This document shows, piece after piece, positions 3,414 through 54,975 of a stretch of 64,000 nucleotides of DNA. The position numbers and the translations under genes were made by a program. How positions within the stretch are numbered: the stretch's first letter is position 1; each line of letters begins with the position of its first letter. Source of the stretch: an uncultured Candidatus Saccharibacteria bacterium (GTDB taxonomy: Bacteria > Patescibacteriota > Minisyncoccia > Phycocordibacterales > Phycocordibacteraceae); contig CAZYDN010000002.1 of assembly GCA_964646315.1 (NCBI GenBank), positions 962 through 64,961 on the forward strand. Direction: 5' to 3'. A model generated the notes under the pieces. That model searched no databases. It saw only the letters and a list, made by a program, of their open reading frames with translations, and was not told the origin of the DNA.

Positions 3414-4430
3414 TTACTTGCTTCCTGGTGCCCTGGAGCGATCAACCGCAATTGCGTACTCTCGCATAATATCTTGAACACTGAACACTGCAATCCCGTA
3501 TCGCCACGAGTTCGCTTCTTTGGGTTCCACTATAGTTTGTGAACGTGCCTGATAGAACAGAAAGAATTCCTCCCCGATTATCCACGAGCTTGCGTGTCCA
3601 TTCTCACCGTTCTCCCATTCTTCCGTATTCTCTGTAGAGAGCACGGGGCCCAAGCTCACGTACGGACCCTTGATATCGTTGGCAATCGCAAAGAACACAC
3701 GCTGTCTTGTCCCGCGTCTCCCTTCAGCTAGAAAACAGGTGGCGTTCAGAAGAATTTTCCCATCGGGGAGGGGTACGACCTCTGGTCCCTCGATACCCCA
3801 TTCGTAATCTGGATGCTCGCGACCATTATGGTGCCACTCAATATCTTCGTGCCGTAAGATTGCCTTTACTCGTTTCCAGTGACCAGACCAATACTCCGTC
3901 GTGCTCTTCGCCAGATATACATCGGGCTGGGGAGCAGGGAACAGATGCGCAGTATCCGCCTTCCTGTCGGGTATGGCAGCGTACACCAGATATTTTCTTC
4001 CAGAAACGGTACAAAGCTGGGGGTCATATAAGCCTGACTCCATTTCACTCGTAGGGCGCATAAGTGTACGCATTTTGGTGAATATGTGCCCGTCTGCAGA
4101 CACCAGGTAGGCAATACCTCCACCAACATGTATGAAATCTTTCTGCACAGCCATGTGGAAAAGATGGTCATCAAAATCGTAAACCACAGATGGTGCCGCC
4201 ACATGAATACCATCGACGCCGCGAAGCACTGCAGGAGCTTGCTCTACCCACGGCCCCTCTATGGACGGGGCGGTTGCATGAAGTATTTCCCATTCCTCGC
4301 TTACGGTCGTACCGCCGGAACCATAGATATGCCAGGTAGTACCATCAAATGCTATACAGGGGTCTTTAACATCCTTAAAATGCGTGGAATCAAATAGAGG
4401 TCCTATTTTTCGTATGGGTGTAAGTGCCAT
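3414..4430 (-). CDS. glycoside hydrolase-like beta-propeller protein (GH43/GH32-like)
   Basis: N-terminal motif DPCIAFDGTTWHIYGSGG and repeated W/Y-rich blades; 338 aa. Confidence 0.5.
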   Translation of the reverse strand: MALTPIRKIGPLFDSTHFKDVKDPCIAFDGTTWHIYGSGGTTVSEEWEILHATAPSIEGPWVEQAPAVLRGVDGIHVAAPSVVYDFDDHLFHMAVQKDFIHVGGGIAYLVSADGHIFTKMRTLMRPTSEMESGLYDPQLCTVSGRKYLVYAAIPDRKADTAHLFPAPQPDVYLAKSTTEYWSGHWKRVKAILRHEDIEWHHNGREHPDYEWGIEGPEVVPLPDGKILLNATCFLAEGRRGTRQRVFFAIANDIKGPYVSLGPVLSTENTEEWENGENGHASSWIIGEEFFLFYQARSQTIVEPKEANSWRYGIAVFSVQDIMREYAIAVDRSRAPGSK

Positions 4431-4568
4431 ACCATCATTCTATCCTTTCAAAAAAATATTGTGCAAATACAACTTCAGGTCGCCTTCATAGTACGTTTGG
4501 TGTACTGAATTCTGCTCAACTACCCATTCTTTCCGTGCCATACTTTAGTAACTAATAATAAAATTGTC

Positions 4569-5045
4569 ATGATTTCAAAAAATACTATCTGTCTCTGGTT
4601 TGAAAAGGATGCATTAGACGCTGCAAATTTTTATGCAGCAACGTTCCCTGATAGCAAAGTAGGAGCAGTTTTTAATGCGCCCAGCGATTTCCCTGGAGGG
4701 AAGAAGGGCGACGTTCTGACTGTCGAATTTACCGTTTGCGGCATTCCTTGCATGGGTCTTAATGGTGGACCGGTGTTTCCCCAAACTGAGGCATTTTCCT
4801 TTCAAATCGCCACGGACTCTCAGGAAGAGACCGATCGTTATTGGAATGTAATCGTAGAGAACGGTGGCAAGGAGAGTGATTGTGGCTGGTGTAAAGATCG
4901 CTTTGGGGTCTCGTGGCAGATTACGCCGCGCACGTTAACTGAGGCGCTTGTAGCTGGCGGGGAAGAAGCGGAGCGGGCTTTTAACGCTATGATGACCATG
5001 CAGAAAATAGACGTAGCGACTATCGATGCTGCACGTAAGGGGTAA
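4569..5045 (+). CDS. PhnB-like / 3-demethylubiquinone-9 3-methyltransferase-domain protein (VOC/glyoxalase superfamily)
   Basis: The N-terminus CLWFEKDALDAANFYAATFPDSKV is typical of PF06983-type proteins. Confidence 0.65.
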   Translation: MISKNTICLWFEKDALDAANFYAATFPDSKVGAVFNAPSDFPGGKKGDVLTVEFTVCGIPCMGLNGGPVFPQTEAFSFQIATDSQEETDRYWNVIVENGGKESDCGWCKDRFGVSWQITPRTLTEALVAGGEEAERAFNAMMTMQKIDVATIDAARKG

Positions 5046-52306: not shown

Positions 52307-53218
52307 GTGTACGCGTCTACCTTATATATGGCATCTACTCTCTATCAACAGCGATCCGCAAATGCATGGCGTACCGCATTCCTTATGGCAATGTTCTTGG
52401 CCATAGTGCTTGGTATTGGGTACGCCGTGTCGTGGTACTACCAGTCGCCAGGCATCCTCTACGTAGCGATAGTGTTCGCACTCTTCATGAATGTATGGAG
52501 CTACTGGTTTAGTGATAAGCAGGTGCTCTCCATGACCGGGGCAAAGCCAGCTACACGCGAAGAATACTTTGATCTCTACACCGTTACCGAAAACATGTCT
52601 ATTGCGGCAGGACTTCCTATGCCAAAGCTCTACGTGATAGAGGACGCTGCGCCAAACGCATTTGCCACAGGACGTGATGAAAAGCATGCGGTAGTAGCAG
52701 CTACTACCGGCTTGCTCGCTATGCTTGATAGGCAGGAGCTCGAGGGAGTTATTGCTCATGAGCTTTCTCACATTCAAAACCGGGATATGCTCGTGATGAC
52801 CGTTGCCGTGGTGCTCGCTGGATTCCTTGCGATTATCGCAGACATGTTCTTGCGCATGAGTATGTTTGGAGGAAACAGAGACGATAATCGTGGAGGCTTG
52901 TTTATGATTCTTGCGATTGTGGGAATAATCTTGGCACCAATAGCGGCGCAACTTATTCAGTTGGCGATTTCCCGTCGCCGGGAATATTTGGCGGACGCGT
53001 CAGGTGCACTTCTTACACGGTATCCAGAAGGTCTTGCACGAGCACTTACAAAAATTAGTAGCTACGCGACGCCGATGCATAAGGCAAACCATGCAACCGC
53101 GCACCTCTTTATTGCCAACCCATTTGGCTCCCGCGCAAAGGGATTTGTGAACGGACTCTTTGCTACACATCCGCCGGTTGAGGCTCGCGTAAAAGCGCTC
53201 CTCGGCACAAGTGCGTAG
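52307..53218 (+). CDS. htpX: zinc metalloprotease HtpX (M48)
   Basis: HELSH motif and 4 TM helices. Confidence 0.85.
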   Translation: MYASTLYMASTLYQQRSANAWRTAFLMAMFLAIVLGIGYAVSWYYQSPGILYVAIVFALFMNVWSYWFSDKQVLSMTGAKPATREEYFDLYTVTENMSIAAGLPMPKLYVIEDAAPNAFATGRDEKHAVVAATTGLLAMLDRQELEGVIAHELSHIQNRDMLVMTVAVVLAGFLAIIADMFLRMSMFGGNRDDNRGGLFMILAIVGIILAPIAAQLIQLAISRRREYLADASGALLTRYPEGLARALTKISSYATPMHKANHATAHLFIANPFGSRAKGFVNGLFATHPPVEARVKALLGTSA

Positions 53219-53239
53219 TCGTTTCTGAGTGTGGGGATT

Positions 53240-53644
53240 TTATTTCTTCCGGGTAAGCAAAGCATCAATATTTTGCCAGCGACCCTTACCTTGAGGGAGC
53301 ATTCCTGCGCGCAAAATTGATTCCAGTGTTTTCCAAAGCATCTCTCGTTCCTTCTTAGATGCAGACAGTCTTTCGAGTGACTGAAAATCTCCCTGGAGAA
53401 GCTGTGCATGCAATCGCTTGATGGTTGAGGTACTTACACCGAGTACTTGACCTATTCGGTAATAGGAAAAACTCTCATTCAGCATAAGTATGATTGCAAG
53501 TCGCTTTGCGAGCATTAGGTGCTCGGTCTCAGTTAATACTTCAGTGAGTATTTTGGAACCACGCTTCGTCAGTACTTGTACGAGCTGTGTCGCTATTTGT
53601 TTGGAAACCTGAGTATCCAGTTTCTTAGTGCTTACGTGAGGCAT
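53240..53644 (-). CDS. TrpR-like (YerC/YecD family) DNA-binding protein
   Basis: HTH RIGQVLGVSTSTIKR in a Trp-repressor-like context. Confidence 0.65.
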   Translation of the reverse strand: MPHVSTKKLDTQVSKQIATQLVQVLTKRGSKILTEVLTETEHLMLAKRLAIILMLNESFSYYRIGQVLGVSTSTIKRLHAQLLQGDFQSLERLSASKKEREMLWKTLESILRAGMLPQGKGRWQNIDALLTRKK

Positions 53645-53687
53645 AGTCGGGTAATATACCGATATATCGGTATATTACCCGACTATG
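53642..53687. promoter_or_regulatory. perfect 46-bp palindrome catagtcgggtaatataccgata|tatcggtatattacccgactatg overlapping the regulator start codon
   Basis: Both arms verified base by base. Confidence 0.8.
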
Positions 53688-53728
53688 CTAGTAGAGAGAA
53701 GAGGTGAGCTGTGATATAAAACCTGTAC

Positions 53729-53816
53729 GGAGGCGTCGCATAGCGGTCTAGTGCACCATCTTGGAAAGGTGGCGTGTCGAAAGATACCGAGAGTTCGAAT
53801 CTCTCCGCCTCCGCCA
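53729..53816 (+). tRNA. tRNA-Ser (anticodon GGA), long variable arm, CCA encoded
   Basis: Hand-folded: acceptor GGAGGCG/CGCCTCC, anticodon stem CCATC/GGTGG, loop TTGGAAA, T-arm GTTCGAATC. A TGTGATATAA -10 lies upstream. Confidence 0.85.
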
Positions 53817-53877
53817 GAAGTATTAATATCAGAAGACTCGGGTACTAATAAGCTTGTTTTCGAGCTAGAGTATCTAC

Positions 53878-54975
53878 ATGATTTCTTTTCTCGAAAAACT
53901 ATTCACATCCATAGTGATTGGTGTGTCGGGTTTTTTCGGTATTCATGCAGAAGTACCGGCAATGGTGCCGCCTGCTACCACAAATTCTTCACAGGAATCA
54001 GTGTCGGAGTCGGCCGCTACGTCTGCGCAGAACACAGTGACTCCTACTGTAGCGCAAAGTGGATGGAAAAATATTGCGTTGGCTGGCCTAACGATTGAGT
54101 ACCCGTCGTCTCTAAAAGTGATTCATAACACAGACACCCCCAGCGCGCAGCTACGATTTGTGGAAAGTGCCAATAATCGCCATGCAAGAGTTTTCGTCTC
54201 TGCGGCGAACATTATTCCTGCAAATCAGGATCTCAAAAGTTGGTTGGAAAGTTTTGATTATTTCAAAGCCCAGTACCGCGCACAAAAATATATCTCGTAT
54301 AAACGCAAAGATGGTGTTGAAGTTTTTGCAAGTCTTGGGAACACGCAATCATATGACGACGCGTTCATGCGTTCTGGTGCTGCTGTCGTATATGTAAAAA
54401 ATGGTGTGAACGAATATACTAAAGTAAGCGACAGCGACTTTCGTGAAATCATCGAGCGAATAAAACTTCCAAATGGTTTGAAACTCGGGACCGTTGCTGG
54501 TGGGTATGGCTGTATTACTGGCTCTGATGAGTTGATGACTTTGTACTGGGGAACGCAATATCGCAAAGTAAATCCTTCCGTTCCGTTCATTTACGCGTCT
54601 GGCTCGTATTGTGAATCGGCCAATGGCTCAAAACTTATGACCATGGCTTATTTTCTGCAAGGAACAGGAAGCGGAAATGAGCAAGCGATTGTTTCGTTCG
54701 ATAGTACAGGCAAAATCACAAATACTTACAAAGGAAGTATTTGCCACACTGTGGGTGATTTCGGTTCACCGCTTATCTCATCAGTCGAACAAGGAAGAAT
54801 CAATATGTTCTGCCTTAGCGGAGATGGGGGATATACAGCATTCGAGGTCTTTCAAGCACCACTCGATACACTCGTCCCGGTGGCGGTTAAGCGTGATTCA
54901 GCTGTTTACAATTCGGTCAAAGCCATTGTAGAAAAAATCTACAATATAGATTTCTCCACACGCAATTTGTTCTAG
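53878..54975 (+). CDS. hypothetical secreted protein (low-GC)
   Basis: TM anchor/signal; no family recognised. Confidence 0.45.
   Translation: MISFLEKLFTSIVIGVSGFFGIHAEVPAMVPPATTNSSQESVSESAATSAQNTVTPTVAQSGWKNIALAGLTIEYPSSLKVIHNTDTPSAQLRFVESANNRHARVFVSAANIIPANQDLKSWLESFDYFKAQYRAQKYISYKRKDGVEVFASLGNTQSYDDAFMRSGAAVVYVKNGVNEYTKVSDSDFREIIERIKLPNGLKLGTVAGGYGCITGSDELMTLYWGTQYRKVNPSVPFIYASGSYCESANGSKLMTMAYFLQGTGSGNEQAIVSFDSTGKITNTYKGSICHTVGDFGSPLISSVEQGRINMFCLSGDGGYTAFEVFQAPLDTLVPVAVKRDSAVYNSVKAIVEKIYNIDFSTRNLF

Follow-up and report, generated by a model that had tools for sequence, protein, structure and literature searches.

A perfect 48-bp palindrome over the start of a TrpR-like regulator gene in Patescibacteria is probably the regulator's own operator

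The locus

In a stretch of 64,000 nucleotides from an uncultured Candidatus Saccharibacteria bacterium (contig CAZYDN010000002.1, positions 962 to 64,961; hereafter the window), a small minus-strand gene for a regulator of the TrpR superfamily lies divergent from a plus-strand gene for tRNA-Ser(GGA), and between the two, reaching over the start codon of the regulator, stands the long perfect palindrome with which this work is concerned. An earlier sequence-only reading had described it as a 23+23 bp perfect inverted repeat at 53642-53687. The palindrome is there but is larger by one base on each side: a repeat search gives arms at 53641-53664 and 53665-53688, 24+24 nt, 100% complementary and with a 0-nt spacer, and the 48-mer 53641-53688 is its own reverse complement (arms GCATAGTCGGGTAATATACCGATA and TATCGGTATATTACCCGACTATGC). 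That such an element is not a chance occurrence was rightly noted, as a perfect 24-nt arm is expected in 64 kb at ~64000 x 4^-24, or ~2e-10. It is the sole zero-spacer inverted repeat of such size in the window. The remaining strong inverted repeats are ordinary stem-loops whose loops measure 3-9 nt; several of them are flanked by A/T tracts and are normal bidirectional terminators. As single-stranded DNA the 48-mer folds into a hairpin of -25.2 kcal/mol (DNA parameters; z = -9.8). The start codon lies inside the left arm, as had been read: the CAT at 53642-53644 is the start of the minus-strand open reading frame (ORF) 53644..53240.

De Bruijn assemblers break at palindromes. Four independent assemblies (contigs L001-L004; NCBI, ENA) cross the identical 48-mer, and six short independent contigs (L005-L010; Logan, ENA) end inside 53641-53688; together, the identical 48-mer and the contig breaks typical of palindromes mean that this is real DNA and no assembly artefact. 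All ten of these contigs are identical, with no intermediate alleles among them, and the palindrome accounts for metagenome assemblies breaking at the regulator locus. The features of the palindrome and the regulator gene are as follows.

53641-53688, both strands: full perfect palindrome, 24+24 nt, no spacer (repeat search, script check, folding energy)
53652-53677, both strands: inner 26 bp TAATATACCGATATATCGGTATATTA, the conserved putative operator (comparison with L091, L095 and L097)
53655-53674, both strands: 20-bp core of the putative operator, half-site TATCGGTATA outward from the dyad (positions 4-7 covary with the recognition helix; unique in the window)
53641-53651, minus reading: gene-proximal outer arm CCCGACTATGC, with probable discriminator, ATG and first base of the Pro codon (comparison with L091/L095/L097)
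53678-53688, plus reading: tRNA-proximal outer arm CCCGACTATGC, the apparent mirror of the gene-proximal 11 nt (comparison with L091)
53240-53644, minus strand: gene for the TrpR-superfamily regulator, 134 aa (ORF, Pfam, profile, predicted structure)
53642-53644, minus strand: start codon and predicted leaderless transcription start (conserved MPHVS, -10 pattern)
53653-53658, minus strand: predicted -10 of the regulator gene, TATATT, which falls in the gene-proximal half-site 8 nt ahead of the ATG (the genome's TAnnnT pattern)
53672-53677, minus strand: possible alternative -10 TAATAT in the distal arm (position matches the Kaiserbacteria-type TGcTAnnAT; in L095, TGtTAATAT)

A large family of TrpR-like regulators

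The regulator passes the Pfam model Trp_repressor (PF01371) with 36.8 bits against a gathering cut-off of 27 over residues 28-86, and the same domain is precomputed on nearly all of its homologues. Its helix-turn-helix (HTH) lies at about residues 61-83 and is followed by a C-terminal extension of ~35 aa with a conserved G-MPPRGRGRW motif. A family profile search matches the solved TrpR-like proteins 3KOR, 3FRW and 3G1C, and an AlphaFold (AF2) model (pLDDT 83.1, eight helices) retrieved with Foldseek a top 25 of PDB entries that are all TrpR-like or TrpR (3FRW, 3G1C, 3KOR, 2OZ9, 1TRO), with high probabilities and target-normalised TM values of 0.5-0.7 but weak E-values of 0.15-1.6. The predicted structure is thus that of a TrpR-like all-helical fold. 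The N-terminus MPHVS is nearly invariant across the family, and the ATG at 53644 is therefore the true start. We count 3227 cluster representatives at E <= 0.001 and 1548 (50% identity clusters) at E <= 1e-10, with lengths of 128-157 aa among the 150 matches listed and several paralogues per genome in Patescibacteria relatives; no second paralogue is found in the window, and PHROG and PADLOC hold no match for the regulator. A literature search returned nothing on the regulator family or on palindromes in Patescibacteria and no published operator, the only relevant work being a comparative study of HisR/YerC (PMC9413887). Within the G-MPPRGRGRW motif (residues ~112-123) G114, P116, G119 and W123 are nearly invariant and pLDDT is low; the motif resembles an arginine-rich, AT-hook-like arm and might contact the AT-rich dyad GATATATC.

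Conservation of the palindrome at orthologous loci

We compared 80 loci fetched from Patescibacteria genomes together with close relatives from metagenomes, and the counts below are over 82 loci. A zero-spacer palindrome stands just 5' of the ATG in nearly all loci of relatives. A perfect one, with an arm of at least 9 nt and no more than 160 nt upstream, is present in 70.7% of the 82 loci versus 3.4% of 2099 control windows taken from the same loci, where most of the matches are further copies of the same elements. The sequence-only reading had held that absence from orthologous loci would speak against an operator; the palindrome is present there. The common core is CGATA·TATCG (the point marks the dyad), with symmetric variants CGATT·AATCG, CAATA·TATTG, TGATA·TATCA and CAGTT·AACTG, and the 3-8 nt beyond the core are specific to each lineage. 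The inner 26 bp TAATATACCGATATATCGGTATATTA are identical in L091 and L095, whose proteins are 73% and 63% identical to that of the window, and agree at 25/26 positions in L097 (50%), and the distance from dyad to ATG is exactly 20 nt in the window and in all three. Arm length across the orthologues ranges from 9 to 31 nt, and the palindrome mostly ends before or at the ATG.

TrpR and HisR autoregulate through palindromic operators, and regulators of the TrpR family bind 20-bp palindromes, autoregulation being common among them (PMC9413887). A palindromic site of ~20 bp adjoining the gene and kept in orthologues is a trait of such autoregulated TrpR-type pairs, and it is found here. A variant arrangement is seen in L096 (55% identical), which has two tandem, slightly imperfect upstream operator copies, CCGATACATCGG and CCGATGTATCGG (about 85-115 and 150-180); the 149-aa protein recorded for it in the database probably begins at a wrong start within the second palindrome, and the true N-terminus is probably MAHLS.

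Covariation of the site with the recognition helix

The half-site changes together with residues of the HTH. Proteins with S-P-S-T go with TATCGT, those with S-T-S-T with TATCGG or TATCGA, those with S-G-S-T with TATCG(C/A)CC, those with S-I-S-T with TATCGCAC, those with x-P-Q-T with TATCA, and those with S-P-T-T or S-P-A-T with TATTG/TAATG. When mutual information (MI) with the half-site is ranked over ~130 protein columns, residues 71, 72 and 73 come first, followed by 38 and 40 and then by 77, 2 and 76, so that residues 71-73, 76 and 77, at the start of the predicted helix 72-83, make up 5 of the top 8; they pair with DNA positions 4-7. The association persists at the level of clusters: with proteins clustered at 50% distance and the HTH residues left out (38 clusters), MI is 2.23 against 1.29 +/- 0.10 after shuffling, a value reached in 0/5000 shuffles, and 'PS' occurs with 'CGT' in 18/20 cluster-states. 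The consensus operators of TrpR (TGTAcTnGTnnACnAgTACA) and HisR (cacTTTAnnnnnnTAAAgtg) are specific at about the same half-site positions, 4-7 (PMC9413887). Paralogues in one genome carry different half-sites (L049, L080, L084), and multiple copies in one locus share an inner 7-14 nt that is specific to the locus. Specificity of the site would thus track the recognition helix of the regulator across the alignment.

Where arms are imperfect, upstream copies show 13 mismatches of G:T type, 8 of A:C type and 24 others, and downstream copies (described below) 16/13/28. An RNA helix under selection would show a preference for G:U pairs, and as there is none in the arm mismatches they carry no signature of RNA structure. 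Covariation, paralogue specificity and the lack of a wobble signature together point to a DNA site recognised by a protein.

Promoter and start of the regulator gene

No Shine-Dalgarno (SD) sequence precedes the regulator gene, an observation of the sequence-only reading that is correct but is no peculiarity of this gene, as SD-like 4-mers precede only 6/46 long ORFs of the window. A TAnnnT hexamer 5-9 nt before the ATG, most often at 6 or 8 nt, is found at 28/59 window ORFs versus 6% of random positions, which indicates that the window genome is SD-poor, mostly of leaderless type and widely expressed from leaderless mRNAs. The hexamer is often g[cg]TATACT; example gene starts are 5195, 8216, 12253, 17239, 35610 and 55122. 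Among the orthologues an SD-like motif is present in 1/82 and a -10-like TAnnnT-type hexamer 6-8 nt before the ATG in 40/82. The TATATT of the regulator gene has the same position, and the ATG would probably also be its transcription start. For the alternative TAATAT the start would fall near the dyad and leave a leader of ~20 nt without SD. Relatives of the Kaiserbacteria type have a dyad-to-ATG distance of only 9 nt and an extended -10 TGcTAnnAT on the far side of the site, which again would place the start near the dyad. In both subgroups, then, the site appears to cover the -10 and/or the start of the regulator's promoter, the classical position for repression.

The arrangement also bears on whether the palindrome could act in the mRNA, as a 5' hairpin that buries the start codon and controls translation. 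A transcribed 48-mer would fold very stably, AUG included (-25.2 kcal/mol with the DNA parameters given above), and there is no SD. However, as the predicted -10 falls within the gene-proximal arm at 8 nt from the ATG, the mRNA probably holds only AUGC of the palindrome and the 5' arm is probably not transcribed, as would be expected where leaderless-type promoters are widespread. Moreover, the palindrome mostly ends before or at the ATG with arms of very different length, its mismatches show no G:U bias, and covariation with the HTH points to recognition of DNA. A permissive Rfam search of 53000-54200 returned the tRNA and sub-threshold matches of the hairpin to miRNA precursors, and no known RNA family. 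We regard translational control by this hairpin, one of the options of the sequence-only reading, as highly improbable.

The palindrome as a probable autorepression operator

Taken together, the comparisons suggest that the palindrome is the autorepression operator of the adjacent TrpR-like regulator, covering its -10 and transcription start, and we put the probability of this reading at a little over 0.7. Operator function with autoregulation had been among the options of the sequence-only reading, and it is the one favoured by palindromes at orthologous loci whose sequence covaries with the recognition helix. The conservation of the site, its covariation with the protein and its position relative to promoter-like elements were computed directly. 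A homodimer of the 134-aa protein would bind the inner ~20-26 bp through the half-site TATCGGTATA, with the recognition helix (residues ~71-83) reading half-site positions 4-7. The predicted -10 TATATT lies in the gene-proximal half-site, and with both -10 and start under the operator a bound dimer would exclude RNA polymerase, such that the gene represses itself. The outer 11 nt lie outside the conserved site and most likely stem from a template switch seeded by the perfect operator.

Several points weigh against this interpretation. The evidence is computational throughout; that the protein binds and represses, where transcription begins, whether a co-repressor takes part and how the outer arms arose are steps that we infer. 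The regulator stays below the NCBIfam cut-offs both for YerC/YecD (= HisR; TIGR02531; 21.1 versus 42.2 bits) and for TrpR (TIGR01321; 16.8 versus 67.25 bits), so that function can be transferred at the level of the superfamily only; the YerC/YecD label given by the sequence-only reading thus holds for the superfamily, where Pfam Trp_repressor passes, but not for the family. The covariation test is only partly corrected for phylogeny. A generic sigma-70 scan of 53100-54000 gave no promoter; such a consensus scan is unsuited to the -10-only promoters of this genome. No -35 is recognisable, and the promoter was therefore called from the -10 pattern seen across the genome. No further convincing copies of the half-site or operator are found within the 64-kb window, and with no other target site there no regulon can be defined. 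Finally, a TrpR-type dimer needs ~10 nt per half-site whereas the arms in the window have 24, and the operator model alone explains neither the outer 11 nt nor their perfection. Relatives, too, often have long perfect arms (as much as 31+31 and 28+28), and arm ends fall at the ATG 20 times versus 12.6 +/- 2.8 by shuffling (p ~ 0.006), which makes some selection on symmetry itself possible.

The outer arms

Beyond the inner 26 bp, the last 11 nt of each arm occur in the window lineage only. In L091 the sequence on both sides is equally long but unrelated, and only 5 of these 11 nt are palindromic; in L095 and L097 the palindrome extends even less. The gene-proximal outer arm ends in ATGC, which comprises the start codon and one base of the conserved Pro codon, its first, and it must therefore be the distal arm that was made complementary to the gene side and not the reverse. 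In the model of Ripley, a template switch in a quasi-palindrome perfects an imperfect inverted repeat by copying one arm from the other. Most likely the outer arms arose in such a way, by templated copying of the gene-proximal flank (discriminator and ATGC) with the gene-proximal arm as donor. Similar to such a switch, the outer 11 nt of the window mirror a constrained ATGC while L091 is unrelated there at the same length; unlike a fully traced event, this one is reconstructed from two lineages only, with ten identical contigs. If correct, the perfecting of a palindrome in a single lineage would be a clean natural example of templated palindrome growth.

A second copy after the stop codon

In most relatives the palindrome occurs again just 3' of the stop codon, so that two copies bracket the gene (for example 2462-2489 and 2925-2952 in L040, 2470-2495 and 2907-2932 in L050). 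The dyad of this downstream copy is usually found 7-60 nt beyond the stop, at a distance of 419-529 bp from the upstream one. The copy is there with a convergent neighbour (38 loci) as well as with a co-directional one (27 loci), and this independence of the direction of the neighbour means that it is not simply the operator of the next gene. A looping test on helical phasing of the distances between upstream and downstream copies gave none (Rayleigh p 0.25-0.88). The outer arms differ between the two copies of one locus, each still palindromic. A few loci hold extra copies: L089 is among those with 3-5, and L011/L012 have two interleaved types. L029 has a second, distant paralogue (4135-4380) bracketed by palindromes at 4042-4067 and 4558-4577 with the entirely different core TCTTA·TAAGA, so that the bracket architecture reaches remote family members.

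In the window HtpX and the regulator gene converge with only 21 nt from one stop codon to the other (53219-53239), and this gap holds neither a terminator nor a downstream palindrome. The corresponding gap in L091/L092 (73% identical) measures 61 nt and is filled by a 28+28 palindrome with A/T-tract flanks, and by this comparison the window lineage has apparently lost its downstream copy by deletion.

These copies raise the alternative that the symmetry itself is selected, as a hairpin or cruciform that serves as terminator or insulator, or as a structure preferred by the protein. In the window it would stop read-through from HtpX, which faces the regulator across the 21 nt between the stops, before it reaches tRNA-Ser. 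In line with this, outer arms differ between copies and are nevertheless palindromic in each, arm ends pile up at the ATG, TTT occurs within 8-22 nt of the dyad at 34/63 downstream copies versus a background of 26% (upstream copies 10/57), the 28+28 copy of L091, centred 23 nt past the stop (L091:2713), lies with AAAA/TTTT flanks between convergent genes, and the window, having lost its downstream copy, has the longest upstream arms of its subgroup. However, T-runs are missing from both flanks and both strands of the window palindrome, and a terminator scan did not call it; the ordinary terminators of the genome are GC-rich stems with 3-9 nt loops and T-tracts; and among the relatives mismatches show no G:U bias and TTTT on the gene strand of downstream copies is at background level (6/63 versus 10%). 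On selection of the symmetry we therefore look as unlikely. An intrinsic terminator as such was rejected for the same lack of a call and of a flanking T-run and the difference from the genome's real terminators.

Bracketing whatever the neighbours are would also suit a recombination or mobile-element site, in which the palindromes are the ends of a small cassette or serve, beside a tRNA gene, for attachment or resolution; several paralogues per genome, the frequent tRNA neighbours and a solo operator copy in L132 fit with it. However, no recombinase or transposase lies within ~4 kb of the palindrome, there are no PHROG/PADLOC matches, the 134-aa protein has no catalytic domain, and synteny (tRNA-Ser-regulator, HtpX-LemA-GroEL) is stable across 55-100% identity. 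A non-exhaustive search found neither target-site duplications nor empty sites. With no positive evidence in its favour, this option of the sequence-only reading, raised there together with a cruciform, appears very unlikely.

More speculatively, and with considerable doubt on our part, the loci may represent a Patescibacteria-wide, undescribed module, one half of which is seen in the window: a TrpR-like gene of ~134 aa bracketed by its own paralogue-specific zero-spacer palindromes, several per tiny genome and often in or next to tRNA genes at a fixed distance from operator to tRNA. The upstream copy would then be promoter and operator, and the downstream copy an operator with weak terminator character. 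If this is true, with the bracket functional as a loop, roadblock, insulator or moving or converting cassette and the regulators tuning tRNA output, it would be a new regulatory architecture, with a residue-to-base recognition code, in organisms with almost no characterised transcription factors.

The tRNA neighbours and the wider locus

On the far side of the palindrome three further features lie on the plus strand.

53671-53676, plus strand: mirror TATATT, 8 nt before a mirror ATG (53685-53687) and directed toward tRNA-Ser, possibly a second divergent promoter
53712-53720, plus strand: extended -10 of tRNA-Ser, TG-a-TATAAA, 8 nt before the mature 5' end (read from the sequence; conserved in close relatives)
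53729-53816, plus strand: divergent tRNA-Ser(GGA), 5' end 64 nt from the dyad (tRNA and Rfam scans)

The adjacency to tRNA-Ser(GGA) and its extended -10, both pointed out from the sequence alone, are borne out: the tRNA starts 41 nt beyond the palindrome, TGnTATAAA is read at 53712-53720, and linkage and spacing are conserved in a subclade. There tRNA-Ser stays beside the regulator over protein identities of 100% to ~40%, while the outer neighbours change. The distance from the dyad to the 5' end of tRNA-Ser is 55-67 nt in 12/16 tRNA-linked loci (64 in the window), with outliers at 84, 86, 108 and 187 nt, the first two of which are about two helical turns further, and this spacing is held although dyad-to-ATG differs by 11 nt between the subgroups (9 versus 20 nt). 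Such spacing hints at a possible co-regulation of regulator and tRNA-Ser.

A more explicit form of this idea is a symmetric, bidirectional control region, in which the operator and promoter of the regulator are also a functional element of the divergent tRNA-Ser(GGA). The outer arms could supply a mirror promoter (TATATT at 53671-53676, start at ~53685, plus strand), or a dimer that binds ~62-64 nt ahead of the start of the tRNA could act as class-I activator or UP-site factor; the regulator would then couple its own level to tRNA-Ser output. Besides the spacing and the persistent linkage, this is suggested by the mirror arm, which exactly reproduces -10, discriminator and start, and by another subgroup that lies within a tRNA-Cys/Leu ... 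tRNA-Lys/Leu cluster. Against it, about 60/82 family members are without an adjacent tRNA; tRNA-Ser has a conserved promoter of its own (TGnTATAAA or TTGAnn-17-TATACT); only the window lineage has the full mirror promoter, the arms of L091 being 2 nt short and its mirror ATG not conserved; and the spacing could reflect common ancestry of a short intergenic region. We consider bidirectional control rather improbable, while the fixed tRNA-Ser spacing and the paired sites do raise questions on insulation and tRNA control in minimal genomes.

Further observations concern the tRNA genes themselves. The -10 of tRNA-Ser(GGA) (TATAAA/TATACT) ends 7-12 nt before the mature 5' end (window 53712-53729; L027, L030, L032), so close that the primary transcript would have almost no leader for RNase P. 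L018, L041 and L050 (also L033 and L066) share a conserved cluster of tRNA-Cys, tRNA-Leu(TAA), regulator, tRNA-Lys(CTT) and tRNA-Leu(TAG) with palindromes between the tRNA genes, and in L050 the cluster holds other, unrelated zero-spacer palindromes of 14-19 nt (2266, 3343, 3472). The regulator's neighbours in the window are GroEL, LemA, HtpX, GNAT, DUF192 and an unknown 365-aa protein. The last is encoded downstream of tRNA-Ser (53878-54975, plus strand), has a hydrophobic N-terminus, is conserved in identical-strain contigs only and has no Pfam, PHROG or PADLOC match.

Copies of the core elsewhere

A metagenome scan for the exact 20-mer core returned 50 stretches, 12 of which adjoin a family gene. 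About 22 human-gut contigs share an identical 38-bp palindrome (arms ATATACCATTATACCGATA and TATCGGTATAATGGTATAT) that contains the 20-mer core (L106, L110-L112, L116, L118, L120-L122, L124, L126, L130, L133, L136-L138, L140-L143, L148). In L111, the one examined, it lies between divergent genes and begins at the -10 of a TTGACA-17-TAATAT promoter. No gene of the TrpR-like family was found near it in any of the gut contigs, and it is presumably an unrelated operator. Core copies of 22-24 bp also occur inside ordinary coding sequence of contigs resembling the candidate phyla radiation (CPR): 3773-3794 of L134 (LeuRS) and 6760-6781 of L113 read IYRYIGI, 2722-2745 of L147 reads IPIYRYI, and further copies are in L101/L117, that of L117 reading TDISVY. 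The LeuRS copy is a native, normally conserved stretch and not an insertion. These coding copies are probably chance matches in a very large database, and the idea of a mobile mini-palindrome was dropped.

Comparison with known systems

The window pair is similar to Escherichia coli TrpR in that a small all-helical protein of the TrpR fold appears to be matched with a ~20-bp palindrome that is read a few bases from the dyad and lies over the protein's own promoter, an overlap that in TrpR brings about negative autoregulation (PMC9413887). However, similarity to TrpR is at superfamily level only (16.8 versus 67.25), and unlike TrpR the window protein has the G-MPPRGRGRW extension of ~35 aa, its operator core is CGATA·TATCG, no trp genes are nearby and the promoter is of leaderless type.

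HisR (Bacillus subtilis YerC) is nearer, with 3KOR, 3FRW and 3G1C as the closest solved structures and sequences and with 20-bp palindromic operators. About half of hisR genes carry their own site, the HisR operator consensus is lineage-specific, and its targets are his and transport genes (PMC9413887). Nevertheless, the operator in the window (..TACCGATA and TATCGGTA.. on either side of the dyad) differs from that of HisR (cacTTTAnnnnnnTAAAgtg) and no his genes are in the neighbourhood; HisR has <100 aa, is single-copy and serves his/transport operons, whereas the window family has ~134 aa and several paralogues per genome, has tRNAs or unrelated genes as neighbours and in most cases stands between two of its own sites.

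For the paired sites the parallel is lac, in which the auxiliary operators O1-O2 stand ~400 bp apart and act by DNA looping. Similar to these, the second site of relatives repeats the sequence of the site at the promoter, from which it is 419-529 bp away across the gene; unlike them, it comes with no evidence of tetramerisation, no helical phasing and weak terminator-like flanks, and in the window it is absent.

The family thus differs from TrpR and HisR in length, copy number, operator sequence, genomic context and paired-site architecture. Most likely we are looking at an ordinary kind of switch, but one in a large and unstudied regulator family that is usually bracketed by its own sites. 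In Patescibacteria (CPR), whose genomes are very small, both an operator and a way of autoregulation on leaderless-type promoters can now be predicted for a large family (1548 clusters). The correspondence between residues 72/73 and half-site positions 4-6 is testable and can be used to predict sites in any metagenome-assembled genome.

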